DNA of 63,922 bases, counting the filler, from Chrysochromulina tobinii (taxonomy: Eukaryota), in NCBI GenBank assembly GCA_001275005.1. It is 7 parts of 7 records of this genome, joined end to end, with 100 filler letters (N's around TTAATTAATTAA, not from the genome) between each part and the next. Parts side by side here need not be neighbours in the genome. Positions count along the whole stretch, not along the records: positions 1 to 17,070 come from JWZX01000789.1; positions 17,171 to 30,256 come from JWZX01000790.1; positions 30,357 to 48,486 come from JWZX01000791.1; 4 more parts are not named here. One strand, written 5' to 3'. The first letter of the stretch is position 1. Each line of letters opens with the position of its first letter. A model generated the notes under the pieces. The model did no database searches. It was not told the origin of the DNA and saw nothing but the letters and a program-made list of their open reading frames with translations. Below are positions 2,423 to 32,838 of the stretch, in pieces. Position numbers and translations under genes: made by a program.

Positions 2423-3077
2423 GACGAGACGGCGCGCACGAGCGGCGTCTGCTGGCCGCGCTCATTGCTCCGAACGGCGCTCCGCTGGCCCGAGGTCGCT
2501 GGCGAGGTGCTCGGCTGGTCGACTCCGCAGACGAGCGGGCACGCGCGTGCACTAGGCCGCGCGCCCGCTCCGATACGGCGCCGTCCAGCCGGTCGCGGCA
2601 GCATGCAAGTGCTCATCACGGCGCCGTCCAGCCGGTCGCGGCTGGGCGACGCTGAAGGTGTGGCCGTGTGGGGCTGGTGAGGCCCTGTAGTGGCAGGCGG
2701 CGCGCGCGGTGGCAGACGAGCAGAGACCTCATCCGATACTTGAATTTATATGTAGCTACGTTTGGATTCGCCCGTCGGATCATTTTAGTTCATGCCAGCT
2801 ACGTACGGCGTTCGTTCGATTCACGGATTTCATAGGGTCCGGTTTTACCCAAGGGGGTAGGTTGACGGGATTAATATCTGGATTTGCACACAATCCTCAT
2901 ACCCTGATTTCAAACTCAGAGTGAACTGCAACACACCGCATCAGAGAGATCAACACGATATGGGAGGCCTGGTCGGCCGCTCGCTCCGCAGACCGCACGC
3001 TTGGGACGGGGGGTCGTCACAGGACACGCGCTTCTGCTCGGTGGGCTCGCGGCTCGGCTCTGCGGCACTCTGTCTGT

Positions 3078-5429
3078 CTACGTGAGGTCATCAGCGTCCT
3101 TAGCATCGGCGGGCACCTCAGCCGGCTCCTCACTTAGAGGCGCATCCGCATCCGGCACCTCGCCCAGCATGCAAGTGCTCATCACGACGCCCCCTCCACT
3201 CAGAGGCTCATCCGCATCCGGCACCTCGGCGGGCGCCTCGGCGGGTACCTCGCCCGGCGCCTCGGCGGGCACCTCGGCCGGCGGCCTTGGGGCGGCCACA
3301 CACAGCTCAATCAGCGCATCCTTCGCTGCGACCAGCTTCGCCTCGTCCTTCGCCTTCCTGATGGGTTTCGGCAGCAGCTCCGGCGGGAGATCGAGGTTGA
3401 GATACGCGGCGAACTCGTGCAGCTTCTTGATGGCGACGCGGATGTTGTACCTGATGAGGGATGCAATCATAGGTCATCAAGAGGTCATTGGATGATCATC
3501 CAGAGGCCATCCAGAGGCCATCCAGAGGCCCTCAAACGTGATGAGGGATGCAATCAAAGGTCATCAAGAGGTCATTGGATGATCATCCAGAGGCCATCCA
3601 GAGGCCCTCAAAAGGGCCTCAAACGTGATGAGGGATGCAATCAAAAGGCGAGCACGTACTCGGCCGTGAGCTCGGCGCATCTCGCCTGGAGCTCCGCCAC
3701 GCCCAGCAGCGCGAGTGCTCGGTTTTCTCGAAGCTGCTTCTCCTCCTTCGCTTTCGCGATCTCGACCCCGAGCCGCTCGAGCTCGTCCATGGCCGCGTGG
3801 TACCGACGGCGCGTCTCCTTCACCTGTGGGGAGATGGGGCGCCGTGGTGAGCGTTTGCATGCAAGGCAGGGCCGCGTGGTACCGACGGCGCGTCTCCTTC
3901 ACCTGATGAGGGTTGCAATCAGCATGCAATCAGGGAGGACATCCATTGCAATCAGAGAGGCAATCCAATCCAATCAGAGAGGCAAGCACAAGGTGCACTC
4001 AAGGTGTGAAGGCAAGGTGTGAAGGCAAGCACAAGGTGCAATCAAGTGCGGCGCGTCGTTCACACCTCCTTTTGGCTCTCCTTGACGAAGTTTCGTCGCT
4101 CCTCGAGCTGCTGCTCCAATATTCCCTGGTACCTGTGGGGAAAAGGGGTGGGTCGCGCGCCGTGGTGAGCACTCGCGTGCACCGGGTTCACAAGCAGAGG
4201 CCCACGTACACGTAGTAGGGCACCAGAGCCTGATGGCAATCGCAATCAGAGGCCCACGTACACGTAGTACGGCACCAGAGCCTGATGGCAATCGCAATCA
4301 GAGGCCCACGTACACGTAGTACGGCACCAGAGCTTCGAACGTCGTCGTGAGCTCCATCGCCATCCTCATCGACTTGCCACGCAGCTCCATCGCCTCCTCC
4401 GCCGCCTTCGCCGCCGACGCGCCGCCCTTGCCCTTCACCTGCTCCGCTGTCTGCTGCGCTTCCTCCGCCAGTGCCTTGGCCATCTCATAGGCGGCCAGCT
4501 TGGCAAGGTGGGCGGCGTTCTCCTGTTGCAGGCGCGCATGCTCCGCAATCAGACGCAATCAGACGCAATCAGACGCAATCAGACGCAATCAGACGCAATC
4601 AGACGCAATCACTCACCTGTTGCAGGCGCGCATGCTCCGCCTGGGTGTTGCGCTCGGCGTTGGCCAATTGCCGTTTGGCGCCATCCATCTTGACCTGTGC
4701 CAAAAAGGGAGGGGGGCGTCGTGGTGAGCACTTGCATGCAGGGCGGGGTGTGTGGCCAGCTGATGCTTGGCGTCATCAGGCGTCATCAGTGGTCATCAGT
4801 GGTCATCAGTGGTCATCAGTGGTCATCAGTGGCCTGACCTGCGCCTGCGTCATCGCGTCTCGCTCATTGTTGATGATCTCGATGCACTTTGGCACGCGCT
4901 CATCCACCTCCTCGTCCTCCTCCTCCTCGTCGCCAGAGCCCTGCGCATTGACGAAACTCGAGCGCAGCCGTCATCAACTGCAATCAGAGGTCATCAACTG
5001 CAATCAGAGATCATCAACTGCAATCAGAGGTCATCAATGCGCATTGACGAAACTCGAGCGCAGCCGTCACCGAGTGCCCGCGATTGCCTAATTTGGGGTG
5101 TACCTCCACAGCGAGGCATCCTCAGCGACAACCATCCTCGCAATCAGAGGTCATATATTGCAATCAGAGGTCATCAGCGACAACCATCCTCACAACTACC
5201 GCAGCCATCAGCGAGGCACTCAGCATGCAAATCACTCAGCGTGCAAATCACTCAGCATGCAAATCACCTGCCCCTTCCGCCACGCCGACGCGTCTTCCTC
5301 CTCCTCCTCCGCCGGCGCGGGCGCCGTCGCGGGCGCCGCCTCGACCTCCCCCGAGCTGCCGCCGCCGCCGCCGCCGCCACTGACGACCCCATTGCTCACA
5401 TCACCACTGTCGTCGCCGCTGCTGCTCGT

Positions 5430-5461
<32 letters not shown>

Positions 5462-6167
5462 GTGGCGGAGGAGGCGGCGGCGGCGGCGGCGGCGGCGCAC
5501 CGCTCCCGCTCCAGTGCGGCGCGAGGTGCGGCGGCGAAGCGCCGTTGCATGCAGCGAGCGACTTGCGCAGTGATGAAACCTCGGCCTCGCTCAGCGAGTG
5601 CTCAAAGGCGAGCGCCTGCTCGAAGGCCAGGCGCGCGCCGGCGAGGTTGCCCTTGCGCAGCTGCTCCTCCCCCGACGAGCTCAGCGACCGGTACAGCGCT
5701 CGCACATCGGCGAGCGGCGCGCCGGCGCCCACCTTGGTGCCGGTGCGTGGCATGCGCTCGAGCTTCTGCTGCACCTGCTTGAGGAGATCCTTGCGCTTGA
5801 AGCGCGAGAGCAGATCGCGCTCGCCCTTGGGTGGCTCCTTGGCCGACAGCTCCTGCTTCGCGCGCTCGTAGTACTCAAAGGCCTGCTGCAGGTTGCCGAG
5901 CTTGTCGTGCACGGCCGCGAGCTGATTGTAGCACAGCACGCACTCGGTCTTCGAGGGCGGCAGGTATCGCTGGTTGACCGAGAGCGCCTGCTCGAAGAGC
6001 GGCAGCGCCTCCGTAAACGCGCCGCTGTTGAGCTTCACGAGCCCCTCGGCGAAGAGCGACGACGCGATGCGCAGCGCATCGGACAGCTGCTTCGGCGTCG
6101 GCGAGGAGGGTGGGGGCTGCTGTTGCGTGCTGCTGCTCGCTTTTTGCTTGGGATTGGGCGAGTCCAT
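3078..6167 (-). CDS. Multi-exon TPR and coiled-coil protein (approximate exons 6167-5268, 4941-4840, 4694-4617, 4522-4316, 4132-4066, 3823-~3650, 3450-3078)
   Basis: TPR-like helices (ALPLFEQALSV, YNQLAAVHDKLGNLQQAFEYYERA) in ORF 5232..6167; coiled-coil coding fragments between repeat-filled GT-AG introns. Boundaries partly uncertain. Confidence 0.6.
4547..4612 (-). repeat. Intronic tandem array (TGATTGCGTC)n
   Basis: Perfect 10-bp units, agacgcaatc on the + strand. Confidence 0.95.
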
Positions 6168-6365: not shown

Positions 6366-6414
6366 AAGGACGGCTCCGCACCCCTCGGTCAACACAAGTA
6401 CTGAGTACTCGCTC
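6366..6414. repeat. Dispersed 49-bp repeat; second copy inverted at 20574-20622
   Basis: 48/49 identity between two contigs; contains AGTACTGAGTACT. Confidence 0.85.
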
Positions 6415-7240
6415 TTTCGGGTCACTCCGATATGCTAATGAGGTCGGTCTAACGGTCTCTCCCTGTGGGGTGTTCCCTGTCGCAGGGCCCTGTCGCTTTA
6501 TCTGCCCCATGCTGAAACTGCGAGGGTCCGCCACCCCCCACGGAAAAGGTCGCCAAACACGGGGGCCGCTACAGTAACCTTCTCGACGACCGGCCGTTAT
6601 ACAAAACAGCACTCCTGTCAGAGATACACGACAGTACTACATGCATCATGCAGTCAGGAGTACCTCTGACCTCGAGCGTCTCGAGACTCTCTGTGAGGAC
6701 ACACTCAGTTGACACTCTCAGACTCGCACTCAAACTTGCACACACAAGATACGTCTAACGGATCTCCCTCGGAGATACGTCTAACGGATCTCCCTCGGAG
6801 ATACGTCTAACGGCTCTCCTCTGCGCGGCCCGGGACACACATTCGAGTTATGCATGTTGCGCGCCGTCTCGGGCGCGGCCCATCGGCTCGTCCGAAGCAC
6901 ACGTTAGGCGCCGTCTCGGGCGGTCATATTGCCGTATTCCATGGGCCGTATTTAGCGCACCACGTGCATCGGAGGGTAAGCTTCGAGCGGCAGCCCTTGG
7001 CTCAGATTACACCTCCAGAGCTCGATCAGAGCGAGCTCAGAGGGAGCTCGGAGCTCGCTCAGCTGAGCTGCGAGCTCAGAGGGAGCTCGGAGCTCGCTCA
7101 GCTGAGCTCGCTCTTCTGGGCAGGTCCGAGTTGACGCGAGCTCAGAGGGAGCTCAGAGGGAGCTCAGAGGGAGCTCAGAGGGAGCTCAGAGGGAGCTCAG
7201 AGGGAGCTCAGAGGGAGCTCAGAGGGAGCTCAGAGGGAGC

Positions 7241-10200
7241 TCAGAGGGAGCTCAGAGCTCTTCTGGGCAGGTCCGAGTTGACGCCACCGTTGAAGAGCGC
7301 CGCATCGAGCGCCGCGCCCTGCAGTTCGCGCACGTTCTGGTCGTACCATATTTGGTCGAGCCACGTCGGTTTCGTCAGACCGATCTCGGCCTGGAGCACC
7401 TTCTCACTCATCTTGAGCGAGCCAACGGCCCAGCCCGACCGGTAGCCGTAGTCCTGTGGGGACAGAGCAAGGGCAGCTCATCAGTGCTCATCAGTGCTCA
7501 TCAGTACTCATCAGTGCTCATCAGTGCTCATCAGTGCTCATCAGTGCTCATCAGTGCGCATCAGTGCGCATCAGTGCTCATCAGTGCTCATCAGTGCTCA
7601 TCAGTGCGCATCAGTGCGCATCAGTGCTCATCAGTGCTCATCAACGCTCATCAGTGCTCATCAGTCGCAATCCCTGGCCAGCAGGGCGAAACGCCCTCGA
7701 TTGCATGCACACCTGGTCGGCAAGGTACACGTCATGAGTCTTCGTAGGCTTGCGTACCTAAGTAGGGAGAGAAGGGTGCCGAGGTGAGCGCTTGCATGCA
7801 AGGTACACGTCATGAGTCTTTGTAGGCTTGCGTACCTAATTAGGGAGAGAAGGGTGCCGAGGTGAGCGCTTGCATGCAAGGTACACGTCATGAGTCTTTG
7901 TAGGCTTGCGTACCTAATTAGGGAGAGAAGGGTGCCGAGGTGAGCGCTTGCAGCAAGGTACACGTCATGAGTCTTCGTGGGCTTGCGTACAAGGGCACGG
8001 TTGGCGCCCGTGCAATCAGATGTCATCAGTGTGCAATCAGAGGTCATCAGTGTGCAATCAGATGTCATCAGTGTGCAATCATATGTCATCAGCGTACAAG
8101 GGCACGGTTGGCGTCCGTGCCAGTGCTCGCGCTCAGCCGCCCTATCCCCGGGGTAGTGGGATCTTCAGAGTCCCAATTCGAGACGGTCATGAAGGTGGGC
8201 TTGGCGATGGAGGCGGGGCTGATGCCCTTCTGCTGCAGCTGGTCCTCATGGAACGTGAGCAGTGATGAGTGCTGCTCACCGAGCGCCCAAGACGACACGT
8301 CAGCTCGCCATCAGTGACCATCAGGGGCACTCAGAGGCACTCAGAGGTCATCAGCTCGCCTGCTCGTCGAGGGCCTTGGCGCCCATCGGGGTGCTCATGT
8401 CGAGCAACGTCACGGGACTGCGTGGGTCGGTATGGAACTGCTTATAATAATCGGCCGAGCTAGTGTAATAAGTCTCGAGGAAGCCCGAGCAGTTGCCGTA
8501 CTGTACCTTGATGCCTGAGTACACGGGCTTCCCGTCGGGGTCGACGCCCACCTGATGCAATTAGGATGCACTCAGGATGCCACCGAAGATGCACTCAGCA
8601 AGGAACTGAGGCCGTCAGTAGGCAATCAGCATGCAATCAGCATGCAATCAGCATGCAATCAGCAAGGAATCCGAGGCCATCAGAGCCAAGCGGAGGCGAT
8701 TGGGGAGCCATTAGAGCCACTGAGAAGCAAACAAAGGCAATCAAAGGCAATCAAAGGCAATCACCGAGCCACTCAAAGCCACTCAGTAGCCATCAACGGC
8801 AATCACCTTGCACTTGAGCGGACCATCGTGGTAGCGACCGGCAAAGGGGGCGGCGAGGGTCATGTCGTTGATGAGGCCCTCCATCAGTCCCAACTTGTTA
8901 GCCCACCACGCATCTTCGTAGTACACATAGACCTTCTGCATCGATCCAACAGTAACGGCCTCCAACACGGCCTGCACCTGTGGGGAAGAGGGGGAGCGCC
9001 GTGATGAGCATGTGCATGCAGGGCCGGGGCATCACCAACACGGCGCGCACCTCGCTCGTGCTGTCTATCACGAGCACGCTGTCTGACACGTTCATGAGCT
9101 TCTCGATGGAGGCGCCGGGCAGGTTGAGCATTACCTAATGAGGGACGCAATCATATTGAGCATCCTCAGCATGCAATCATCTGAAGCGTCTTCAGCATGC
9201 AATCATGGCATGTGGAGCACCTTCGAGGCCGTGAACGTGGCGCCATTACGGAATGAGAGACGTGTCGAGCGGCCAGTACCAGCGACGATCGAGATGAGCT
9301 CATGCCCAAAGTGCACCTGCGTACTCAGCCAGCAATCACGTGCAATCACTCTGCATGCAATCACTCTGCATGCAATCACTCTGCATGCAATCACTCTGCA
9401 TGCAATCACTCTGCATGCAATCACTCTGCATGCAATCGAGATGAGCTCATGCCCAAAGTGCACCTGCGTACTCAGCCAGCAATCATGTGCAATCACTCTG
9501 CATGCAATCACTTTGCATGCAATCAAAGCCATGCTCGAAGCCATGCTCGAAGCGGACCTGCGTGCCTTCTCCAAAGTCTTCGATCTCGCCAAGCATCACC
9601 TCAATCGGCCACGAGAACCTAATGACGCAAATCATCAAAGGCAAGTCATAGGCCAGCAGAGGCCCGCAGAGACCAGAATGGGGACAGCACAGGACATCAG
9701 AGGCCAGCAGAGGACAGCATATGCACGTACCCGAAATTGTTGCCGTACGTATCCTTGATGACGTAGCAGTTGCCGCTGCCCTCGCAGCCGCCGGCGCACT
9801 GCCAGTCGTAGCAAGCGGTAGGCAGCCTGAGCGCGTCCCAGACGAGCTGCGCGGGCAGCAGGTCCGTCTCGATGAAGCGGTAGCCGCCCGCGTCGAGCGC
9901 CAGGTCCGGCGCCGGCGGAAGGCCGCGGATCGAGAAGATGCGGCCGCCCACCCGGCCGTTGGCCTCGAAGACGCAGACGTTGGATGGATCGACGGTGTCA
10001 GTGTCGATGGACATGCGCCACGCGAAGTAGGCGCCGCCCCAACCTGCGCCAACCACCGCCAGATCGCAGTGCTTCGGCTCGTCGCGCAGGAGCGACGGGT
10101 TCCGGCGCTGCTCCAGAGCCGCATCCGAGATCATCTCGCCGAGCTCCGGGCGCCATTTAGCCTGAAAGCGCCACGCCGACGCCGACGAGTTGGGGAGCGA

Positions 10201-10260
10201 GGGCAGCATACTCTCCACAATCGTCGGCGCGGCCTGGGACAGCAACGTCAGCGACAGCAT
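7241..10260 (-). CDS. Flavin-dependent amine oxidase / L-amino-acid-oxidase-like protein, multi-exon (about 9-10 exons)
   Basis: FAD dinucleotide-binding motif DLAVVGAGWGG..FEANGRVGGRIFS..DAGGYRF; internal KVYVYYEDAWW; C-terminal VYLADQ|DYGYRSGWAVGSL. Introns are filled with tandem repeats. Confidence 0.85.
7478..7665 (-). repeat. Intronic tandem array (TGATGAGCAC)n
   Basis: About 18 units of tcagtgctca on the + strand, inside the last oxidase intron. Confidence 0.95.
7722..7990 (-). repeat. 78-bp tandem units, each an exon copy plus the GCATGCAAG cassette ending in TAG
   Basis: aaggtacacgtcatgagtc recurs at 7722, 7800, 7878 and 7955. Confidence 0.9.
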
Positions 10261-10474
10261 CTTCTTGGCTGCTGTACCCCCTGGCCCGACGGTCGGAGCA
10301 GTCCAGTCCAGTCGCGAAACTTCCGACGGCCCCGAGATTCCACGGAACCCGGGTCGTGTTCGTGGATGAACTTTCACTTTTGGGGGCCATGTTGACTTTT
10401 CCGGAAGTTTCGTGTCCCCAACGCGCGCCCCGCCAGATGCCTTCTCCGAAGCGGAAGCAATCCGAGTGCGTATA

Positions 10475-12069
10475 ATGTCGCTGCGCCTCCTCCTCGCGCT
10501 GGGCTGCCTGCTGCCGGCGGCCTCGTTTCGCGCATCTGGGACGGTGGGCAGTGCATCGACCGCGCAGCGCGCGCGGCCGGCGGTGTGCGGCGTTGCTAAC
10601 GTGCCGAAGACGGTCGGCGAGGCCCGGACGGGCTTCAACAAAGCCTACGGCCGCCCGGTGGATGGCGTGCAGCAGGGCTTCGTGAACGAGATGCTCACCG
10701 GCTGCCAGCTCGCGCTCATCTCGCCGGGCTACGCCCCCTCGCGCGTCTTCTCGCTAGGCTTCGAGTCGCTCTGCACCGCCTTCCTCGCCAACTCTGGTGA
10801 AGGCCCCAAGATCCACGACGCGCTGCTCGCTGGGCTGGGCATGGATGCGAAGAAGCTGGTGTCCGAGGCGGAGGCGCTCAAGGCGGCGGCTGCGGGCATG
10901 TCCGAGGCGGTGCGTGCGCACCGCTGCGCGCGCCTTCCCTCGTCGCTCCTTCCCTCGGTCGCCATCTCCGTTGCCTCCACTGCCTCTGCCGTCTGCTGCC
11001 TCCACCGCCTCGGCCGCCTCGGCCGCCTCCACTGCCTCCGCCACCTCCGCCACCCCCGCTGCCTCGGCGGCTCCCTCGCCACTTCTGCTCGTGTTTGCCT
11101 CCGTGATTGCCTCCCTAATATGGTGAGACCGACGTTCGATCCTCACTGCATCGTCCGCTGCTCTCGTCCGTTACTGGCTGCAGGAGCTGCTGGCGTCGCC
11201 CGACCTGAAGGCGATCGCGAGCAAGCCCGGCTACAAGTATTCTTACCCGCTGGGCGCTGGGCTACTCGCGTTGATGGCCCTCGTCGGCAGCGAGCCGTCA
11301 AAGGAGGTGTGTGATTGCCTCCGTGAATGCCTCTCTGATGGCCGCGCTAATGGCCTCGCTGATGGCCTCGCTGATGGCCTCGCTGATGGCCGCGCTGATT
11401 GCCGCGCTGGTGGCCTCGCTGATGGAGGCTGCTATCAGCGCACCCCGTGTCACCCTTACCATATTAGGCATCACCTCACCCCGTGTCGCCTCGGCATGAC
11501 GAACCTTGCAATGACGAACCTCGCAATGACGAACCTCGCAATGACGAACCTTGCAATGACGAACCTCGCAATGACGAACCTTGCAATGACGAACCTCGCA
11601 CTGACGAACCTCGCAGGTGATCGAGCGATGGTGCACGGCCCTCGGCCTGCCGGCGTCCCGGCTGACGAAGGATTGGGAGTTTTATGAGGACGCATCTCGG
11701 AAGCTCGTGGAGGTGCGCCAGATGACATCTCGCTTGATTGCCTCTTGCTTGCCTCTGGATTGGGAATTTCACCGAGGACGCATCTCGGAAGGTCGTGGAG
11801 CTGCGCCAGATGACCTCTCGGGAGATGATGGCGGAGATGGCCCACTGATGGACACTGATGGACACTCAACACTTCTGATGACCTCTGATGACCTCTGATA
11901 CCTCTCGCGGCCTCTGGTGGCCTTCCTCCTGTGGCAGGTGCGTCAGATGATGGCGGAGATGAAGGCGGCGGGTAAGCGTAAGGAGGCGGCGAAGCTCAAG
12001 GAGGAGGCGGAGAAGGCGATGAAGGAGGCCGACGAGGCCGAAGCGAAAGAGAAGGCGGCCAACAAGTAA
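10475..12069 (+). CDS. THF1: Thylakoid formation 1 / Psb29 family, plastid-targeted; exons 10475-10909, 11184-11306, 11617-11712, 11938-12069
   Basis: KTVGEARTGFNKAYGRPVDGVQQGFVNEML..VFSLGF and GYKYSYPLGAGLL resemble THF1/Psb29; signal peptide plus AASF bipartite leader; three GT-AG introns keep the frame. Confidence 0.8.
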
Positions 12070-12663
12070 ACAAGCGTAAACAAGCGAAGGAGAACTTGTG
12101 TTGATGTGGGGGGGAGCCAAACGTAACGATGGCTAGAACGGTGGAGAACTGGGTGCGAGTACTGCCTCGCCATGTACCTTGAGTCATACCGCCGTCCGCG
12201 GGTCGGTTTTTGAGCGCACTGTTGGCGCGGGGCCGGCGCCAGGGGGAGCGCGACGCCGCAGGGAGCCGAGCGGAGTGCCCCGGCCACACGACAGGTTCGA
12301 CACCGCACCGGCTGACCTGAACGCTGAAGCTCACACAGGGCGCGACACAGCCGCGGTTTGAAACATTGAATACTTCAAAATTGAAACTGAGGCCTCCCTG
12401 CCCATCGGTCCCGGGACACTCCCCTTCTCGGCCCCTTCCCGGCCCCTCCCGGCGCCCAGGCTGGCTAATCCCCTGGCTCAGCGCTCACAGCCGGAGGGAT
12501 GCCGGTGAGGCGGTGTTAAGGCGCAGGGTGTTTTTGAACCGATACGCATGGCGTGGGTGTGGGCGCGCGCCGGGCTAGGTGACGTTTCATCGTAGGGCGG
12601 CGCACCGTTCAAATACTGAGCAATTGAAAAGTACAGTACCGGTACACAGTACTAATTACGATA

Positions 12664-14297: not shown

Positions 14298-15200
14298 CTT
14301 TATATGATAAAATTGGAGTAAAAGGTTACTATTGCTTGGGCTTGGGCTTGGCTGCTTGGCACTCAGTTCAAAAATGTAAAATCAGCAGAGCGGTCCATTC
14401 TCAGCGATATGGCAGGTGCTAGACCTGACCTTAGAACCACTCTGGGGACAGTGTGTGAAATCCAGTTTGTGTATGGCGCCGCGGTACCCGCGACCGTAGC
14501 TACGGTAGGGCGCGGACTAGACCGCCCGGCAGCGCACGCGGAGCGGACTAGGCCGCGGGCAGCGCGGCCGCGGAGGGGCACGCCCGGAGCGCACAGTGAC
14601 CGGACACCGCGGCACCGAGAGCCGCGAGCTCCCCTGACTCTGGTCTCTGCCCGAGGAGACGCTCCGAGTCAATATGCTCCGAGTCCGACCGCCGGCACGC
14701 GACGCGCGCGTAACTCGCGCAAAAAAGCAGCAAGGCAGTTTGGAGTTTCGCCCGGCCCTCGCCCGACCGCGGGGCGCCCGCGCGCGGCGGCCCCGCCCCC
14801 GGCGCAAGCGGCCAAATTGGCTATTTATTGCTCGCCGCACGGGTCACGAACATAATGTCGTGTATTTACAGCATGAAGCAAGGTCAGAAGCATGGCATGA
14901 AATTACCATGTGCCATGCAGTCACACTCCGACTCCGGACTCGCGCTACAATGAGTAAAGACTCGCGTGGGAGTGCGTATAGGGGGCGAAGGGGCGGCGGC
15001 CACCTAGGAGCGGCCGGCACTCTGTGAACAGCTGTCTGTGAAGTGTAAAGATGTGCTCACTGTGGGCGGAACCCACGGTCAGCCCACGGAGCACGGGCGG
15101 CGCCGCGACGGGCACGCAGCCCAGGCCCGGCGGCGTCCACTGAGCGCTGGCGCCGTAACGGGCACTCTCGTGTGCACCGTGTGGCGCCGTCATGGGCACT

Positions 15201-20493: not shown

Positions 20494-20573
20494 GCCCCGG
20501 CCCTCGATACGCCCCGGCCTTCCAGATGCGCATCCGGCCTCAAGGCTCTTACTGTAATGCCCCCAGCCCGAGC

Positions 20574-20622
20574 GAGCGAGTACTCAGTACTTGTGTTGAC
20601 CGAGGGGAGCGGAGCCGTCCTT
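20574..20622. repeat. Dispersed 49-bp repeat (inverted copy of 6366-6414)
   Basis: Direct sequence comparison. Confidence 0.85.
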
Positions 20623-20953
20623 TGAGACGGTGGTGTACTCGTGTGAGCGTGGGGGCCGGCGGGGGGCCGCGACGAAACTGACTGACTGACTGACTGAGAC
20701 CAGTTTTAGAAGCGCTTTTTTCAGGAAAATAAGTCAACGAAATCCAACACGTGTAGCTGTAGGGTGGTCAACACACAACACCGCGTTGTCCCGTTGACGC
20801 TTGACCTTCAGCACCTTCCCGAGTACCGATGTTAGTCGTGTCCCAGAGGCGGGGCTGAGGGTGAGGCCTGAAATAGCTCGGTCCGGGACCGCCGTGTACC
20901 TTCAGTCCCTATTGAAAAACGCCTAATTAGGACATAACTTCACAGAACCCCGG

Positions 20954-23731
20954 TTACCAGGTGGTGTAACTCCACAGATACAACTGGAATCCACTCCGGC
21001 CCTTCACCGCATCTTGCACCGCTGTTTTCCCTGCATCTCCCAAATTATTGTCCCAAAGGTAGAGCCTGGTCAGCACCGCCGTGCCCGTCTGCAAGGCATC
21101 GGCGATGGCTTTGGTACCCTCGTCCCCAATCTTGTTCCCGTTGAGCCACAGCGTGGTCAACACCCTGTTGACCTTCAGCGCCTCCGCGATCGCCTTGGCA
21201 CCCTCAACCTTGATGTAGTTGTACCCGAGGTCCAGGGTGGTCACCACCGCGTTGACCTTCAGCGCCTCCGCGATCGCCTTGGCACCCTCATCCCCGATGC
21301 TGTTGCTCCGGAGGTCCAGGGTGGTGACTACCGCGTTGACCTTCAGCGCCTCTGCGATCGCCTTGGCACCCTCGTCGCCGATCTTGTTGCCGCCGAGCTC
21401 GAGCTTGGTCACCACCGCCGTGCCCGACTGCAAGGCGTCAGCGATGGCTTTGGCACCCTCGTAGCCGATGCTGTTGCCGTACAACTCCAGGTTGCTCAAC
21501 GCCGGCATGAACTTGGTAGCAATGAGGAGAGCGATGACCTTGCAGTCGCCATCCGTCAACCCCTTATGAGACCATTTGAGTTCAGTGGCAGACCGCACTT
21601 GCTTAAGCGAAGCTCCAACCTTCGCAAAGAAGGCCGCCTTCTCAGCTTCTGTCGGCGGGGGCGGCGGGGGCAACCCGCTGCCACCGATTGCGGCCCCGAT
21701 AATTGATCCCACTCCCGCACCCACCACCATCCCCATGGCCCCCCCCATCATCCCCACCGCCTGACCCATCGTTGCGCCCGTCATCATCGCCCCTCCAATG
21801 CCGATCGCCGTGGTGGTCGCGGCGGCAGCGGCTCCTCCCACTGCCGCCTGCGCCGCATCTGTCAGATCACCCCAACGAATGATCTTGCCACTGTGAAGCT
21901 TTGGCTGCTTGTGCCTTCCTTCTGCATCGCAAATTTTCCTCAATTGCCCCTTCAACGGCTGAGCGTAAGGATTTTCAGCAGGAGGCGATTCGTACTCAAT
22001 GAGGTAGGCGGGGAACGCTCGGTGATTCTCGTAAACGATTGCCTCGATATTTGCATGCGAGGTGTTTGAATGGCATCCTGGCGTCGGGAGCTTCGATTCT
22101 GGTTTCGTGAGGTTTTCGGGTCCGGGAGGCACAAGAGCTCGGACGCCCATCTTTCCGAGCGTAACACGCGCCAACAGGATGGTCTTCGTCACACCCATGC
22201 CTTGGTCGCGCGTCTTACGCTCAAAGTACATAGAGAGGCGCGGATCTGCTGCAAAGTAGATGCCCACACCGTACGCATTGTAAACCTCGGACGCATATTG
22301 CGTCATGAAGCCGTTTTTGATGTTCTCTTGCATGGAATCATTCCCGTTGAAGAGCCACACCTCATTCGGGTCACCACCGTTTTGTTCCTTGATCATCTCT
22401 CGCATATCTTTGTAAATGCGATACTGGGCTTCATTGTCATTGCGCACCACCCTTTTCACGACGAGGCCGGGAGTCTTGGCGAAAATCTTGAAGGCGTTGC
22501 CAACGACTGCCGTTTCTTCGGCGTCGCACACGATTTGTTGTGCCGGCCGAGGCGGCAGCTTTGGAGCCTTTGGAGCCTTTGGAGCCCGAAATACCTGGTA
22601 GGGGTGCGGCGTGGGCTTCGGACGGCCGAACAGTCCGCCATCGCCGTCTCCGTCGTCGTCGTCGCCGAATAGGCCACCGCTGCCGCCCTTGGGCTTCGCA
22701 GCCGGCGGCGCGGCGGCGGGCGGCTTGGGAGGCGCCGCGGGGACCTCTGAAGGTACGGTTGGTACCGCCTGGGAAAGAAGCTTGCGAATTAATGCCTGTC
22801 GTGCAGACTTGAGCTTCGTCGTCTTCGCTTGCGCCACCTCCTTCGCCTCCCGACGCTCAGCCTGGTCCTGTGAGACGGCCGCCTGCCGCTCCTTCTCTGC
22901 CGCCGCCAGTCTTGCGGACTTGGGCTTCATCGTCTTTGCTGGCGCCGCGTCCTCCGCCGCTCGGAGCTCAGCCTGGGCCTGGGAGAGCTGCGGCGGGTAG
23001 CCCTGCCGCAGCGGCATTCCCTGCTGCTGCGGAGAGTGCACTTGAAGCGGCATGCCTCCCTGCTGCGGCGGGTACGCCATGAGCCGCTCGATCGCGAGAT
23101 CCACGTCATACCTCGTTGCCGCGAGCGCCCTATACGCTTGGTCCTCGGTGAAGCCGGTGGTGGTGATGGCGCCTAAGGTATTATTCCAGAAATTCGCACT
23201 CTCCTCGCCGGCCTTCTCCGCCGCCCGCTCGGCCTGGGCCTGTGAGAGCTGCGGTGTGTACGGTACCTTGCAGATCTGAGCCTCCGAGTCGGGTGAGACG
23301 AGCATGTCCCAGATTCCATAGCACCCGAAGTTGACAGAGACTCGGCGATTCTTGTCAGGCAAGTCCACAGTGCAGGCCCCGAGAACCGTACCAACGTCGT
23401 TTTTCATGAGTTCTGCCCGATTGATGCGCGAGACCACTTTGTCACCTTTGGCGAAGCCACCAAGAAGCGGAACGTCAAGCTGTAGCTTCTTGGGCGCACC
23501 ACCAAAGAGCCCATACTTGCGCATCATACTGAACTCATCGAAATCGATTTCTTGGAACCACCCGCTCACCTCCCCGTCCACGACTTCACCCATCCCGATG
23601 CGGCGTGCGGCCGGAAACTTTTCGTGGCTCCTCTGCAGACGGCGAGCGGCGATTGTCCTCGAACGGCTTGAGCAGTCGCTGAGCGCTTCGTTGCCCATGA
23701 GCGCCGAAATAATCCGGTCTTCTTGATCCAT
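20954..23731 (-). CDS. UBA, PARP-type ADP-ribosyltransferase domain and RI-type LRR protein; intronless
   Basis: UBA-like GFTEDQAYRALAATRYDVDLAIERL; PARP-like NEVWLFNG..YGVGIYFA..SMYF..ILLARVTLG..EAIVYENHRAFPAYLIEY; about six 28-aa LRRs of the form LxLxxNxIGDEGAKAIAEALKVN. Confidence 0.85.
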   Translation of the reverse strand: MDQEDRIISALMGNEALSDCSSRSRTIAARRLQRSHEKFPAARRIGMGEVVDGEVSGWFQEIDFDEFSMMRKYGLFGGAPKKLQLDVPLLGGFAKGDKVVSRINRAELMKNDVGTVLGACTVDLPDKNRRVSVNFGCYGIWDMLVSPDSEAQICKVPYTPQLSQAQAERAAEKAGEESANFWNNTLGAITTTGFTEDQAYRALAATRYDVDLAIERLMAYPPQQGGMPLQVHSPQQQGMPLRQGYPPQLSQAQAELRAAEDAAPAKTMKPKSARLAAAEKERQAAVSQDQAERREAKEVAQAKTTKLKSARQALIRKLLSQAVPTVPSEVPAAPPKPPAAAPPAAKPKGGSGGLFGDDDDGDGDGGLFGRPKPTPHPYQVFRAPKAPKAPKLPPRPAQQIVCDAEETAVVGNAFKIFAKTPGLVVKRVVRNDNEAQYRIYKDMREMIKEQNGGDPNEVWLFNGNDSMQENIKNGFMTQYASEVYNAYGVGIYFAADPRLSMYFERKTRDQGMGVTKTILLARVTLGKMGVRALVPPGPENLTKPESKLPTPGCHSNTSHANIEAIVYENHRAFPAYLIEYESPPAENPYAQPLKGQLRKICDAEGRHKQPKLHSGKIIRWGDLTDAAQAAVGGAAAAATTTAIGIGGAMMTGATMGQAVGMMGGAMGMVVGAGVGSIIGAAIGGSGLPPPPPPTEAEKAAFFAKVGASLKQVRSATELKWSHKGLTDGDCKVIALLIATKFMPALSNLELYGNSIGYEGAKAIADALQSGTAVVTKLELGGNKIGDEGAKAIAEALKVNAVVTTLDLRSNSIGDEGAKAIAEALKVNAVVTTLDLGYNYIKVEGAKAIAEALKVNRVLTTLWLNGNKIGDEGTKAIADALQTGTAVLTRLYLWDNNLGDAGKTAVQDAVKGRSGFQLYLWSYTTW

Positions 23732-24204
23732 GCTGGCCCTCTGTTGGGTATGCGATTGCGTCTCACGATCCGCTATGCGTGCACCTTGGATGAGCGAGCG
23801 AGAGCGAGTGCAGAGCGCGTACCACACTTCGCGAGCGAGGAAGAATGCGAGCACGACCGTTTTCTTTGTCACAACCGACGATCTAACGAAGCCGCGCGCG
23901 CGCGCGCGCGGACGGGCGACCTGATCGGTCGGCAGAATACCCACTGATGACCCAGAGGCCTATATATACCGATCGTTTCGCCCTGTGGGTCCTTCAAGAG
24001 TGTGCGGGAGCACGCTCCGGCTCACAGCCGTTTCACACAGAGCTGCTGATGACCGCCAATCAACCCAACGCGACCACGGGCGCGACCAACACACAGGAAA
24101 TTCTCTGATTGAGCGGATCATCTCCGGGGGGGTCGCGCGCCGCCGCCCGCACTCCCACGGCACTCTTCTTTCCACGAGGATCAAAGTGTCAGGAATTTGG
24201 CGAG

Positions 24205-27200
24205 ATGCGTGAGAGATTGAGTGCTGATTTGGGCGTCCCGACGTCAGACTTCATGGTATCCGACTATTCCCAGGCCTGGTCTCCGCCCCTCTGCTCAGAT
24301 CCCACGCTCCGATCGACTCTTCCGAACGGCGCCCTCGTCGAGGCATTCATCTTCCCCGACACGGGTCGCGGGCTGCGCGTCACCCGCGCCGTCGCCAAGG
24401 GCGAGGAGCTTCTCGCCGTGCCGCTGGACGACTGCTGGCACGCGGCCGACGCGCGCAAGTGCGCCGAGCTTCAGCCGCTGCTCGAGTCCGGCGCGGCTCT
24501 GAGCGATTTCGACGCGTCTGTTCTGCAGCTCTTGCTGTCGCGCGCTGGCAAGACCAGCGTGAGCGAGCTGCGCAAGGCGCACCTCGCCGAGATGCCCTCG
24601 GCGTACAACTCGACGCTGTTCTGGTCGGACGCGGACATGGCGGAGCTCAAGGGCTCGCCGTGGCAGCAGCTCGCGGAGCGGCTCGCTGAGGAGGTGGCCG
24701 CTGATTGGGCCGCGCTCCGAGCGCTCGTGAGCAGTGCGGCCACTGCGCATCCCATCCCCGAGGAGCCTGTCGACGTCGCCGACGGCGCAAGCGACGGCGC
24801 AAGCGACGGCGCGACCACGAGCAACGGCGCGCCCGCCGCCTCGTCAGCGGGCTCCTCCTCGACCATCGGCCCATGCCTCGACTTTCTCGAGGAGCACGGC
24901 ATTACGTGGGACGACTACCTGTGGGCCTACGCCACGCTCAAATCCCGCGCGGCCGAGGCGTCGGTCGAGGGCGTGAGCGGCGTGCGGCTGATGGCTCCGG
25001 GGTTTGACCTGATGAACCATGACGACTCCATCGAGCCGGGCACATCGCACTACTACGACGCAGCACGGCGGGCGCTCATCGCCGTCGCGCCGCGCGACTA
25101 CGCGGCCGGTGAGCAGGCCTGCATCTCGTACGGCGCCGCCTCGAACGGCTCGTTACTCTTAGTCGGTGGGTTCGTGCTCCCTGCCCAGCCGGGCAACCGG
25201 TTCGACCACGTCGAGATCTCGCTCACGACGCTGGTGGCGGCGCCAGACCTGACGACCTTCATGATGGCAGCGCCCGACGCGTCCGGCGCGACTGCGAAGA
25301 CGCCCTTCGAGTTCACGCAAGTGCCCGACGACGCTGCGATCGCGGCCGCGGGCTGCGCGGCTCCCTTCACCACAAAGCACTTGCTGATGCAGGCTGAGCC
25401 GCTGCCGCAGCCGTTGCTCACGTACGTGCGGCTCGACCGGTTGAACGGGGAGGACCTCGAGCTGTACGCGAAGCGCGCGCAGAAGGCGGGTGAGCCGCTG
25501 CACGAGGCGGTGCACGCAAGCCCGTATTGCATGCAAGTGCTCACCATGGCGCCCCACTCCCCACAGGTGAGCCGCTGCACGAGGCGGTGCGCAAGCCCGC
25601 GCCGCTCGATGCTCTAAACGAGGTGCTCTCGCTTGGGGCGCTGCGAGGGGTTGTCGCTTCGATGCGGGACGGGTACCCGACCACGGCAGACGAGGACGAG
25701 GCGCTGCTCGCGCGCGGCTTTAGCGCATTGGGTGAGCGCAAATGGTGCGCCGTCACGCTGCGCCTGTCGGAGAAGAGGTACGCTGATGGCCACTGATGAC
25801 CTGCCTCGCATGCAAGTGCTCACCACAGCGCCATCTCCCCACAGAATCCTCGGAGCGTCGCTCTCTGCCATCGACGCATGCCTCCTTCCACAGCTGAGGG
25901 CGCTCCTGGAGGACGCGGCCAAGCAGGAGGCGGCGTGCCGTCGTTCGGGCAAGCCGTGGAGTGAGTTGCTCACTCGGCGTGCCACGACGCTCGAGGCCTC
26001 GACGGCGCGCATGCATCGGGTCTTCGAGCGGTTACATGCGTCCAATTTGGGCGAGGGTATGCTCACTACGGCGCTCCTCGCGCAGGCATGCACCGCCTTC
26101 TTTATGCTGCTGGCCGTGCCGCCCCTCGCCAGCCACCCGCTCGCGGCGCACACGGCCTTTGTGCCCGCCGCATGGCCCTTTGGCAGCGAGGTCGCAGCTC
26201 CCGGGAGTGGTGCTGGAGCTACCACCACCGGGAGTGGTGCTGGAGCTACCACCGGGAGTGATGCTGGAGCGCTCCCGCCGCTCCCGCCTCTCAAGCCTGA
26301 GATGCTCGCCGTCTCCTCCTCCTCCTCCTCCTCTTCCTCGCCGACGTCGCTGCCTTATCTCGAGCTCTACCGATCCAAAATGGCCTTCTGGGGCGCCTAC
26401 CTCTTGTCCCAGTGGGGCGTGGCACGCGCATTGTCGGTGGCGGAGTCCTCCACCATGCAGCGCGAAGCGGAAGCGCTGCGCCGCGAGTACGCTTGATGGA
26501 CGCTTGATGGACGCTTGATTGTCGCTTGATGGACGCTGGATGGTCGCTTGATTGGCGCTTGGTTTGCGCTTGATGGACGCTTGATTTGCGCTTGATAGTC
26601 GCTTGATCGCTGCTTGATGAACGCTTGATTGCCTTCATCAGGTACGCCTGGAGTGTGCCTACCGAGACTGCGCTGGCGACCCTCGCGCGGTACGCTCCGA
26701 TCATCGAGCTAGGCGCGGGCACCGGCCACTGGGCCGCTTTGCTTCGCGCGCGCGGCGTCGATGTGCTTGCGTACGACACCCGCTGCTGGTCGGATGCGTT
26801 CGCCGACGCTGATGCCTCGGGCGGCACGGCGGGAGGCCAGGCGGGAGGGGCGTCCACGGGGTCGGCGGCGCCGGGTGGGGTCGCCACAGGCACGAGCCTC
26901 ATCGAGGGCGATCGCGACTTGTGCGTCGCAGAGGGGGGGCCGGAGGCCGCCGCCGCCCATGCAGGTCGCGCCCTGCTCCTTGCATGGCCGGACTACCGTG
27001 GGCTGGGCACGTATGCCAGCTGCTGCCTCGCACAGTACACTGGCTCGACGCTCCTTTTGCTCGGGGAGTGGCGCGGGCGCACCCTCGGCGTGCATGCACC
27101 GCCGGGCATGGGCGAGCATGGGCAGTCGTTCTCGGCCGCCTTCCAAATGAAGGTCGAGGCCGAGTGGCGCCTTGTTGAGCAAGAACGGCTGCCCAGCTGG

Positions 27201-27257
27201 CCTTTCTTCATCGACTCGCTCATGGTGTGGACGCGGAGCGGAGAGTGTGACGGCTGA
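24205..27257 (+). CDS. SET-domain (Rubisco-LSMT/SETD3-like) lysine methyltransferase fused to a class I SAM-dependent methyltransferase; exons 24205-25489, 25567-25777, 25845-26486, 26642-27257
   Basis: GRGLRVTR, WAYATLKSRA, MAPGFDLMNH, ISYG..SNGSLL, YPTTADEDEALL, RLSEK|RIL; C-terminal YAWSVP..IIELGAGTGHWA..VLAYD..LLLAWP. The three GT-AG introns preserve the frame. Confidence 0.8.
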
Positions 27258-27462
27258 GACGCTGTGGCGTGTGGGGTTGTCATGGGGTTGCTTGGCTCTC
27301 AAAATCTCTCTCACAAGGGGAGCACAAAACGTACGGGCAGGTTCGTTCATCGGTTGTACCTAGCTTCCTTTTTAGGTCCTGTTTTCAAGTTTCTAGCTAA
27401 CCCGCGCGCGGCTCCACATTCGTATAATTACGCCGACTCTCTGTCGCGACTTCGTCTTTCGC

Positions 27463-30210: not shown

Positions 30211-30256
<46 letters not shown>

Positions 30257-30516: not shown

Positions 30517-30615
30517 CTAGACTTTTGGAAATGAATTTCCCAAAGTCGCCGCTCGTGGCACGGTGTGCGACATCCCTGGCTTTTGTTAGAAAAAAACGGG
30601 TTCACACGAGTCAAC
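30517..30615. repeat. Left arm of an imperfect inverted repeat (partner at 33108-33231)
   Basis: Shared blocks CTAGACTTT, AAATGAATTTCCCAA, GCACGRTGTGCGAC, CCTGGCTTTT, GGGTTCACACGAGTCAAC. Confidence 0.8.
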
Positions 30616-30693
30616 GAAACGGTTGGCTGCGGCACGCGAGCGGTGGAGACGCGCGGACCGTCCGGACTGCCGGCTGGAGGTATCGTACGGGTC

Positions 30694-31455
30694 ATGCCGA
30701 CTCCACCGTCCACCGAGCGCGACGTAAGGGTGCAGCGCCTCATCGAGCTTGACGCCACCGACTTTTACAACCGACGCGCAAAGTGGGTTCTTGTTCCGGT
30801 GCTCGCGATGTACATCTTTCATTCGGTTTTCCTATCTCGCGGCCAGCGCTCCGACACGAGGAGCATCAGCGGTGAAGGCCTCGCAATGGATCTCGTCGCC
30901 CCACTGCCACTGCCCCTGCTGCACGCGCATTCATGCGGCGCGATCGTCCTCGTTCTGCTTACGCTTCTTCAAAAGGAGACGGTGCCCGGCATGCTCCGCG
31001 CACCGACAAAGGACGGAAGCCGGCCACTTGGTCTCGCGACTTCGGGCGCGCGTTTGCACCGCCGGCTCGGCTACGGCTGCCTGATGGCGCTCGCGGTGAT
31101 GGATGCCGCGGGCTACGCCATGGGCCGCTACAGCGCCTTTGCCAATTTCGACACTTTCTCGGTGCTCTTCGCCCTGCCGTTTGCCGCGTGGCTCGTCGCC
31201 ATTCCGCTGACCGCGCGCTGCGGCTGGATGCGATCTCACCGGCTGGCGTCGAATATGCTCCTTAAAGGATGCATCGCGACCCCGCTCAGCCGGCTCGGGG
31301 GCGCACTGCTGCAGCACCGCGGCTGGCCGACGGCCGCGGGATATTACTCGGGTATCTTCGGCGTTGCGTCGGTCGTTGCGCTCTGGCAAGCCGCCGACCT
31401 CGTCTTGATGTGGAGGGAAGTGCGGAGGGAGCGTGGCGACTCCAAGGCGTTGTAG
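30694..31455 (+). CDS. Multi-pass membrane protein (DUF2306-like His motifs)
   Basis: Five to six hydrophobic segments; H..CG, LHRRLGY and HRL motifs. Confidence 0.6.
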   Translation: MPTPPSTERDVRVQRLIELDATDFYNRRAKWVLVPVLAMYIFHSVFLSRGQRSDTRSISGEGLAMDLVAPLPLPLLHAHSCGAIVLVLLTLLQKETVPGMLRAPTKDGSRPLGLATSGARLHRRLGYGCLMALAVMDAAGYAMGRYSAFANFDTFSVLFALPFAAWLVAIPLTARCGWMRSHRLASNMLLKGCIATPLSRLGGALLQHRGWPTAAGYYSGIFGVASVVALWQAADLVLMWREVRRERGDSKAL

Positions 31456-31740
31456 CGTCACCGCGCGCGAAATTGCGTTTTCGATTAGACTGTGTCCTCC
31501 AGCTCTCCCAATTGAGCTCTCCAAGATGTGTTTTGCAATTGGTGTTTTGAGATATGGGCATGAAAGGACCAAGTTGTACATGTACATGTACTTACGCGAC
31601 TTAAATATTGAAATCGGCGGTAAAGTTTAAGTTTGACTGGGAATTTCTCAACAACACCTGTTCACACAATCGCTCCCGGGTCGGCTCGCGTGGGGCAACG
31701 CCGAGCTGGGGCCCTTGGCCGGACGTTGGATACGAGGACG

Positions 31741-32838
31741 ATGGGGTGTTCAAAGAGGTGCGCGCTCCTTTTGGCCGTCTTCGATGTGGGCCGCGGCCAG
31801 CAGGAGGCTGGCGTAGTCGGCCTCGTCGATGCCTTCGTCGCCTCGCCCGCACGGCGCTACACGAACGATAGGGCCGCCCAACTGGTCCGGCTGGGATTTG
31901 CGCCGAGGCGCGTCGCCCCGGTCTATCTTTCGGCGGAGGAGCACCTGCGCAGGGGCTGTAAGCTCACTGCGAAGCAAGCGGGCGTCTTCGCCGTGCATGT
32001 GCACATGTGGAAGACGGTGAGCGAGCTCCTCAGACGGCCCGACGCAAAGGCGCTGCTGCTCGAGGACGACTGGTCGATAGGCGCGCAGAATGAGAGCGAC
32101 GTGGCGGCCGAGCTCCGTCGTATCGAGCTCCGGGACGACGACTGGCAGCTCATAGGCCACTGCCACGGCACCTCTTGCACCACCGCCTACTACCTGAGCC
32201 AGCATGCTGCTCAGCAGCTCTCGGACGCGCAGATCGACCCCTGCGAGGTGGGCGACTGCCCCGTGGACTGGTTCCTCGAGACGCTGGCGAGCGCGGGCCT
32301 CCTCCGCACGTACGTGACGCCGCGCCAGGCGCCCTTCGGCCGGCTCCTGAACGGGACCGTCGATTGGAGTCAAGATGGGCTGTTCCAACAAGATCAGCAC
32401 CAGTTTGCAGTCGAGGAGGACTTGCCTAATAAGGAGGGATCTCCGGTGAGGAGATCGGCAGCAGTCCCATCGCCAGCTGCCGAGCCCCATCCCTCTTCAG
32501 TGACGCACCATCCAGCGCACCATCTTGTCCGCCATCCACTGCCCCCGCCCCCTACCCCGCCGCCGCTCGAGGCGCCGGGCTTGCCTAATCAGGACTCGTG
32601 CGCCGACTCCGACACCCCGCCTGCTGCTCGTGCTCAGCATGCAAGTGCTCACTACGGCGCCACCTCCCGCCACCCAAGCCGCCGCCGTCTCCCTCCGCCG
32701 AGGCCCCCGCCAGCATTGAGCACAATCCCTCCGCCGCTCCCTCCGCCGAGTACACGTGTCTACCAGAGCTGTGAATGCATGCTTCGACGGCTCCGCCTCT
32801 TTGAGCACACTAGGCAGAAGAGCGCAAATGCATGCTGA
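31741..32838 (+). CDS. Glycosyltransferase family 25-like protein; Pro-rich 3' part uncertain
   Basis: GVFAVHVHMWK..ALLLEDDW..TTAYYLS..AA..L..PVDWFL; N-terminal hydrophobic segment. Confidence 0.55.
   Translation: MGCSKRCALLLAVFDVGRGQQEAGVVGLVDAFVASPARRYTNDRAAQLVRLGFAPRRVAPVYLSAEEHLRRGCKLTAKQAGVFAVHVHMWKTVSELLRRPDAKALLLEDDWSIGAQNESDVAAELRRIELRDDDWQLIGHCHGTSCTTAYYLSQHAAQQLSDAQIDPCEVGDCPVDWFLETLASAGLLRTYVTPRQAPFGRLLNGTVDWSQDGLFQQDQHQFAVEEDLPNKEGSPVRRSAAVPSPAAEPHPSSVTHHPAHHLVRHPLPPPPTPPPLEAPGLPNQDSCADSDTPPAARAQHASAHYGATSRHPSRRRLPPPRPPPALSTIPPPLPPPSTRVYQSCECMLRRLRLFEHTRQKSANAC

Follow-up and report, generated by a model that had tools for sequence, protein, structure and literature searches.

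Where introns come from is a long-standing question, and two accounts describe most recent intron gains as having no traceable source (PMC3443670, PMC4202315). In Daphnia pulex, intron gains at staggered breaks resemble the inserts described here in that the introns are recent and polymorphic, directly repeat the end of the neighbouring exon and can hit one site repeatedly; in those accounts the repeats measure 4-12 bp and the filler is mostly of unknown source (PMC4202315, PMC3443670). In our case, by contrast, the repeats are mostly 10-45 nt and make up about half of the intron, and the filler comes from a single, recurring family of acceptors whose donors can be traced. Duplication at staggered breaks, with filler templated locally, has already been described (PMC7407515). 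Tandem duplication of AGGT segments also takes the donor from a duplicated exon segment, but both splice sites then come from the duplication and nothing foreign enters, whereas here the branch region and acceptor are imported. In intron transposition, or template switching by reverse transcriptase, new introns are likewise homologous to existing ones; the 14 events counted in the source are understood to involve whole introns (PMC3443670, for both routes), and our inserts are half-introns with a long target duplication and hundreds of copies.

Known intron-making elements with fixed target-site duplications (TSDs) share other features with the inserts: they carry the acceptor, take the donor from the duplicated target, leave the mRNA unchanged and occur in many copies. 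Their TSDs are fixed at 4 or 8 nt, most have terminal inverted repeats (TIRs) and their copies are alike from end to end, whereas our inserts have neither fixed length nor TIRs, are alike in the 3' half only, are truncated at both ends and have local donors. The Introner pipeline requires similarity to reach both intron boundaries (PMC12130899). In a survey of haptophyte Introners, C. tobinii is entered with 0 families. The Emiliania huxleyi family fam24 (5 copies, unknown class), from the same phylum, is described as having 10-bp terminal direct repeats, co-opting its 5' site and carrying its 3' site, and may be akin to the C. tobinii inserts; family 5 of Chrysochromulina sp. TARA is unlike them, carrying its 5' site and having a 4-bp TSD. 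No description of a system joining a half-intron to an exon duplication was found in the literature searched.

The window analysed here is a stretch of 63,922 nucleotides from Chrysochromulina tobinii (assembly GCA_001275005.1). The closest named matches are haptophytes, at 59-68%. A first-pass annotation had reported a cassette, made of a branch-point-like motif and an acceptor, 12 times on 3 contigs, and every copy was located as claimed (chance expectation 0). Ten of the 12 are within 3 mismatches, whereas 100 shuffles gave 0 such matches, and nine of the 12 lie on contig 1. The CTCAC motif is a candidate branch point. The annotation had placed most copies between direct repeats and had read the inserts as introns. 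The first statement stands for 8 of 12 copies, which have a repeat of at least 16 nt (6 of 10 independent sites), and falls for those at 4156, 4715, 25808 and 32637. The second does not hold for the copies at 2601, 3167 and 32637, none of which is an intron, nor for that at 3838, which extends an older one.

On the plus strand, a 25-nt direct repeat (2575-2599 and 2618-2642) surrounds a cassette truncated at its 3' end (2601-2625), the final 8 nt of which run into the second repeat copy; this site (2575-2642) has no AG or acceptor and lies after a ferredoxin-like gene. The plus-strand cassette at 3167-3191, which lies with a 32-nt repeat within 3131-3228, is antisense to its host gene; the insert adds 66 nt in frame to the coding tail. 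A minus-strand unit of 79 nt (3824-3902) consists of an exact 36-nt repeat, the cassette (3838-3862) and CAG; as claimed, 3791-3826 and 3870-3905 are identical. It adjoins an older acceptor, CTCATCAG, belonging to an intron that extends to about 4065 and whose 5' end was placed from the reading frame; since the unit lies directly behind that acceptor it lengthens an intron and does not make one. Also on the minus strand, at 4133-4180 (copy 4156), a cassette and an acceptor belong to a likely intron that contains tandem copies, and no more than GTAC is shared with the likely donor site. Those at 4695-4739 (copy 4715) close a likely intron whose interior consists of CTGATGAC-type repeats, and here the 7-nt CAGGTCA is shared with the likely donor site. 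Three tandem 78-nt units (7758-7954, minus strand) each join a 36-38-nt exon-start copy to a cassette variant ending in TAG; their cassettes, at 7775-7954, form one tandem array and were counted as a single site. A likely intron of 73 nt (8978-9050, minus strand) comprises a 16-nt imperfect exon-start copy, which matches at 14/16 positions as first described, a short filler, the cassette and CAG.

Two likely introns lie in a plus-strand gene (24109-27257) encoding a SET domain, a Rubisco LSMT substrate-binding domain and a C-terminal methyltransferase-like domain. The 77-nt insert at 25490-25566 is opened, as had been proposed, by a copy of the next exon's start, which gives the GT (34/36 aligned, one 2-nt gap), followed by the cassette (25529-25553) and CCCCACAG. 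The 67-nt insert at 25778-25844 (copy 25808) is of a long form with its own GTACG donor, a CTGAT-type part and a cassette variant, and has no duplication. Two SET orthologues continue through both insert sites, and retention of the first insert shifts the frame relative to them. The remaining plus-strand cassette (32637-32661), in a low-complexity coding tail inside an ORF, has neither acceptor nor repeat; it is older, because a 90% identical homologue has the same peptide.

In a wider sample of 791 kb from related assemblies we found 339 distinct copies across 131 sequences, and the mass production claimed at the outset is supported. The family thus forms dispersed likely introns with common sequence in unrelated genes, as Introners do. 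Its core measures 25 nt, most positions being 90-100% conserved, and is far better kept than the flanks; likeness is lost beyond about 8 nt upstream of it. Copies are clustered (chi2 107.5, df 30), and the depth of the cassette bin, 16,502 against about 85, fits a high-copy repeat and is not a copy number. The long form, a minor class recurring at 11 listed places of which two are duplicates of one contig, is the only form with a shared 5' end, and its copies are in turn often truncated and lie within duplications. Neither a poly(A) nor a tandem tail was seen behind the cassette among the 339 copies. A hairpin signal was rejected, the cassette folding no better than shuffled sequence (z -0.31 to 0.78). 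Searches for an outside source gave 0 matches in 185,579 prokaryote genomes. Viral contigs yielded 1, at the end of a contig from a viral collection, where a haptophyte tail that looks chimeric is attached.

In the inserts an intron end of about 40 bases stands between two copies of an exon stretch. In 151 of 226 acceptor-ending copies the downstream exon start is copied upstream (control 0.45%), so that the 5' half of the insert is host sequence and similarity stops short of one intron boundary; a direct repeat of the adjacent exon thus stands at the opposite intron end, as is expected of a staggered double-strand break. Repeat lengths are spread over 10-49 nt. Two central proposals of the annotation, a variable long host duplication giving the GT to a reused acceptor cassette and a TSD of variable length, are therefore supported. 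The duplication starts with GT in 126/151 cases and with GC in 11/151, is preceded by G in 124/151, and the target reads AG|GT in 71/151. Inspection by eye of the 151 printed structures revealed no terminal inverted repeats, and with lengths that vary there is no fixed short TSD of the kind left by TIR DNA transposons or MITEs. Variable TSDs and 5' truncation are as in SINEs and non-LTR elements; the fixed 3' end with a poly(A) or repeat tail is lacking, 81 of 307 copies having no acceptor end. Nor do both splice sites come from the duplicated segment with nothing imported, as in AGGT duplication, since empty alleles lack the cassette.

Most acceptor-less copies still sit in duplications: a repeat scoring at least 15 accompanies 47/81 of them against 9/79 controls, tandem arrays inflating both figures. 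The identical duplication-plus-filler layout also occurs with other fillers, and median repeat lengths are alike across them (26, 28 and 26.5). Machinery dedicated to splicing, which the annotation had envisaged, is on these two grounds not supported. Of the 20 duplications that extend into the core, 14 show GC microhomology at the junction (background 0.14), and 24 of 133 duplications have no base in common with the cassette at the 3' junction. The 5' junction peaks at the start of GCATGC (35/122 within -2 to +3).

Reading frames suggest that inserts made of duplication and cassette are likely to be spliced out as new introns. Among inserts whose length is not a multiple of three, the frame is kept only upon removal in 33 of 35 (25/25 at the strictest margin), and there is no overall bias towards multiples of three (52/151; 12/38 perfect). 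Contigs from three RNA runs give thin cover of the SET gene, and the 15 listed of their 52 joints include none at either insert. Of 10 comparable sites, three have alleles, 96-99% identical, in which the insert is exactly missing. This supports recent turnover, by gain or by loss, and provides presence/absence at orthologous sites; repeat collapse could have removed the insert precisely from the empty alleles. Each of the three polymorphic inserts has a length divisible by three, and the two that were read through contain no stop, so they need not be spliced.

The cassette is likely to be copied from an older intron nearby. The best-matching other copy lies in the same locus in 20.7 of 101 cases (1.9 expected), and at high score in 9 of 15 (0.28 expected; 6 distinct pairs at 5 loci). 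Two inserts, at loci L052 and L039, carry over host bases of a neighbour 1.7 and 2.5 kb away with 5-nt microhomology, these being the only clear donor-to-recipient cases among 275 local ordered pairs, and the polymorphic insert L061:770 is identical in upstream bases and tract to a neighbour 524 nt away. For about 80% of copies the best match is not local, in loci of at most 20 kb that are often cut; the donors of these copies may lie in trans. Local likeness could be due in part to later gene conversion.

We give about even chances to staggered-break repair with a template switch to an existing cassette copy or intron 3' end, often within a few kb, selection keeping the spliceable products. 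Two nicks 15-50 nt apart would leave 3' overhangs. One end would anneal by 2-5 nt to an existing copy, copy 15-75 nt and rejoin, as junction microhomology and carried-over donor bases suggest. The expected product is the arrangement observed, target-cassette-target with a variable repeat and a 65-90-base insert. If a repeat begins at G|GT or G|GC and copying extends as far as CAG, the exact mRNA would be restored by splicing; spliceable products would hence survive in exons, and others in non-coding or tolerant sites. Each new intron would be a new donor, by which one acceptor family would amplify and cluster, and slippage between repeats may account for the tandem arrays seen. The template would be DNA, and no element-encoded enzyme would be needed. 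Switching at random, however, does not predict the peak at the GCATGC start or the well-kept core.

A possible, if doubtful, extension is a selfish half-intron that has neither transposon ends nor a gene: its 25-nt core would recruit break repair or a spliceosome-linked reverse transcription step, taking an intron's branch region and acceptor from the locus itself and copying them into newly made long duplications. If true, it would account for thousands of introns, CTGAT-type fillers would be sister families, and it would represent a mobile-element class excluded by the very design of present Introner searches.

The same break geometry could also be served by RNA, the gene's own unspliced pre-mRNA or lariat being reverse-transcribed in cis from the acceptor end to a stop near GCATGC, by a reverse transcriptase or an RT-capable repair polymerase. 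We regard this as somewhat unlikely. It would explain the preferred 5' junction, and the excess of 5'-truncated copies over those cut inside the right half (61 right-half-only matches against 10 left-half-only; reversed controls 0 and 3), and AG|GT targets are consistent with priming at the acceptor junction of the donor itself. All 11 same-source best donors share the strand of their copies and lie 0.5-3.4 kb away, on both sides, but availability predicts this (396/452 candidates are same-strand), and strand was set aside as a discriminator between RNA and DNA templates. Moreover, the antisense 3167 copy has the GACGCC variant of an opposite-strand copy 1548 nt away, many copies stop before the acceptor, and there is no stable fold to halt the enzyme.

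A dedicated trans template, such as a small RNA or a SINE-like master inserting at any site by target-primed reverse transcription (TPRT), would account for the conserved core, the recurring long form with its own donor and the majority of copies without a local match. TPRT, too, leaves repeats of variable length and copies truncated at the 5' end. The single template of the first-pass annotation is nevertheless not supported, in view of the 33 different tracts among 34 perfect duplications, the local excess of best matches, the carried-over host bases and the missing tails, so that any such template is clearly unlikely. The window has no Rfam match at gathering score, and 5 weak hits in 10 loci include no snRNA. 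The antisense strand of the cassette presumably resembles U1, U6 and tRNA ends; snRNA or tRNA as template was rejected for want of Rfam support.

That a conventional Introner, the 67-nt long form, came first, short forms arising later through ordinary exon duplication and gene conversion between neighbours, is very unlikely. The long form is indeed conserved at both its 5' and its 3' end and shows no duplication at 25778-25844, and 25 of 133 duplications begin behind an older acceptor, but the other 108 do not, long-form copies are often truncated within duplications, and three empty sites already weaken the reading, the empty alleles lacking the whole unit and not the duplication alone. An assembly artefact is hardly credible: although one viral-collection contig looks chimeric and no listed DNA contig piece covers the SET inserts end to end, 7 shared sites recur in independent assemblies with point differences, repeat copies differ mutually and from the empty allele, and 0.98 of sampled words of 24200-27300 are present in 12 DNA runs, possibly the source data themselves.

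Under the staggered-break reading, the two halves of an intron can be traced separately, one to the target exon and the other sometimes to an identified intron close by. With empty alleles present in close relatives, and with DNA and RNA runs from cultures publicly available, the route is directly testable. C. tobinii would be a case of ongoing, transposon-free intron making in bulk, a gain of introns that proceeds without a transposase and escapes searches requiring end-to-end likeness.

The first-pass annotation had listed 12 copies of the cassette in the window, and all are present, against a chance expectation of zero; its three worked duplication examples were upheld on re-examination. 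Three copies are non-intronic and one lengthens an older intron. Three of the 12 belong to a single tandem array, and the copy at 25808 is the longer form carrying its own donor. A search of positions 9020-17070 and 33000-63922 found no cassette, and the introns of genes at about 45-57 kb look ordinary; the process is therefore confined to patches. At 3824-4065 (minus strand) one site was struck twice: an older, decayed exon-start copy with a CTGAT-type filler was followed by an exact 36-nt exon-start copy with the cassette. A mirror-image case lies at 4522-4640 (minus strand), where a GTGAGT donor comes from the filler and the AG from a duplicate, 25 nt long, of the end of the upstream exon.

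The host is a GC-rich eukaryote, represented in the window by seven contigs with N linkers between them; among named organisms, the closest matches to its BUD23-like gene all come from haptophytes, namely Prymnesium parvum (68%), Diacronema lutheri (65%) and Emiliania huxleyi (59%). Related DNA was sampled by a motif scan that matched at least 133 stretches (about 1,600 estimated across the collection) and that imposes one exact cassette copy on every sampled locus. Sampled loci that overlapped or were allelic were merged for locality tests. The survey of copies covered 130 loci and the window, 791 kb in total.

The 339 distinct copies found there share a 25-nt core and a variable pyrimidine tract. 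An acceptor-like YAG ends 226 of the 307 copies with enough flank and at most four mismatches, and 139 of these 226 end in CCCCACAG. The cassette had been described as flanked in most cases by direct repeats: in 151 of the 226, the start of the following exon is copied upstream (score of at least 10), compared with 0.45% of shuffled pairs. The duplicated copy starts with GT (126/151) or GC (11/151), and is preceded by G in 124 cases and by AG in 71. In 137 its first base lies 20-59 nt ahead of the core; the median implied intron length is 78 nt. Duplication length is variable, as first proposed, with repeat lengths continuous across the 151 structures and no fixed target-site duplication, and inspection of these structures by eye revealed no TIR. 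Half-matches show truncation at either end (61 right-only and 10 left-only; 0 and 3 in reversed controls). A repeat scoring at least 15 accompanies 47 of the 81 acceptor-less copies versus 9 of 79 controls, arrays inflating both figures. The right half also occurs alone in tandem arrays of 18-24-nt units at three sampled loci (L035, minus strand, ~5880-5990; L031, 6215-6290; L075, 10528), suggesting that it is able to seed minisatellites.

In the SET gene (24109..27257, plus strand), two full-length orthologues, from contigs that need not be genomic or intronless and with 49-54% identity to the first-exon query, are continuous across both insert sites (25490..25566 and 25778..25844). The matches of the window change frame from 1 to 3 and back to 1 at the inserts, and the middle exon matches PF09273 in the shifted frame only. 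Reading frame was assessed with a codon model that had been trained on the ORFs of the window, with flank filters passed by 64 of 133 inserts. For inserts whose length is not a multiple of three, the frame is continuous only once the insert is removed in 33 of 35 cases at margin 2, 25 of 25 at margin 4 and 37 of 42 unfiltered. As no RNA splice junction was seen at the SET inserts among the 15 of 52 joints listed, where RNA contig cover is thin, we infer splicing from these patterns. An older acceptor in front is absent at 108 of the 133 inserts, and most are consequently new positions; the other 25 are extensions of older introns.

Among 312 copies queried, ten distinct sites were comparable between non-identical assemblies. 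The insert is shared at seven; three sites are exactly empty, with flanks 96-99% identical: 78 nt at L021:858 are missing from L022, 81 nt at L061:770 from L011, and three 86-nt units at L041 from L055. All three inserts are multiples of three in length, and the empty alleles are open read-through ORFs. They are compatible with gain or with precise loss, and any direction of change is presumptive. That the structures are artefacts of assembly seems extremely improbable.

The cassette had been attributed to a single trans template. That claim is not supported: the 34 perfect duplications (no mismatch over at least 22 nt) hold 33 distinct tracts, which means that tract variety was already there at insertion, best matches are in local excess, and neighbours' host bases are carried over. 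Identical core variants make up 5.7% of 212 same-locus pairs versus 1.4% in permutations (0/1000). With same-site alleles and tandem units dropped, 20.7 of 101 copies have their best match in another copy of the same locus, versus 1.9 expected, as do 9 of 15 in a high-score subset, versus 0.28 (six pairs, five loci). The inserts at L052 and L039 include bases from the host duplication of a neighbour 1.7 and 2.5 kb away, respectively, with entry via 5-nt microhomology; distant copies yield four hits among 17,224 pairs, every one due to the shared long form. The polymorphic L061 insert matches a neighbouring copy 524 nt off, duplications reaching the core continue with GC in 14 of 20 (background 0.14), and copies are clustered (chi2 107.5, df 30).

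We favour, with middling confidence, staggered-break repair in which the template is switched to a copy already present. Nicks would produce the staggered break, its repair would switch onto an existing cassette copy, probably as DNA, selection would retain spliceable products, and the cassette would then self-amplify. Counting against a switch to a nearby copy, some 80% of copies lack a local best match, and this model does not account for the peak of 5' junctions at the core start (35/122). Copying of the cassette in cis from a pre-mRNA template is a tentative alternative, and supply by a trans master, in view of the tract variety and local likeness, is somewhat less probable still. A conventional Introner inserted first and duplicated later is unlikely. 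The inserts function like an acceptor-carrying Introner but, by the features tested, do not qualify as Introners or transposons.

A coarse search for spacers of 12-150 nt enclosed by repeats of 18-70 nt retained 423, of which 146 have the core, 121 CTGAT-type fillers and 156 others, with median repeat lengths of 26, 28 and 26.5, the latter two classes containing ordinary coding repeats. One CTGAT-type unit is polymorphic too (94 nt, L068 versus L032). Since duplication plus filler occurs with several fillers, the cassette is one filler family within a general process. A second family, widespread over loci and likewise lying between host duplications, consists of introns of 9-11-nt CTGATTGC/CTGATGAC-type tandem repeats, many ending in TGATTGCMTCCCTCATCAG; in the window these occupy 3430-5270, 7080-7710, 8550-8810, 9130-9620, 11300-11940 and 26488-26641.

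The window has other notable features. Inverted repeats of 41 nt (30575-30615 and 33108-33148; 88% complementary) flank a 2.5-kb stretch that contains two ORFs and may be a TIR element carrying genes. A short intergenic repeat occurs in inverted copies (~6370-6420 and 20565-20635), the second of which lies in a bin of very high depth in DNA data (18,262); it may be MITE-like or a promoter repeat. An ORF at 60855-61634 (plus strand), on a repeat-rich contig, has a weak, below-cut-off match to CxC5 (KDZ transposase-associated; E 1e-4), and an intronless 925-aa ORF at 20954-23731 (minus strand) matches UBA, PARP catalytic and LRR_6 domains. Outside the window, haptophyte-type sequence with a cassette ends a phage-like contig from a viral collection (L001, 4200-4554), which is likely a chimeric assembly.

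Neither layout nor motif is described in the literature searched, which included few subscription papers and the consulted portions of PMC9860276, PMC4580454, PMC12130899, PMC3443670, PMC4202315, PMC7407515, PMC12480563 and bioRxiv 2020.10.14.339549. The searched part of the PMC9860276 supplement does not contain the 12-nt motif, nor do 12 of 14 supplementary files of PMC12130899; Introner family sequences on GitHub or in the remaining files could contain it. In the portions consulted, the latter, a 2025 Introner survey, gives C. tobinii 0 families and demands likeness at both intron ends, a rule under which half-intron inserts would drop out. The system is best filed as a variant form of intron gain by break repair, one whose filler propagates itself, and represents a real and active, apparently undescribed route of probable bulk intron gain.
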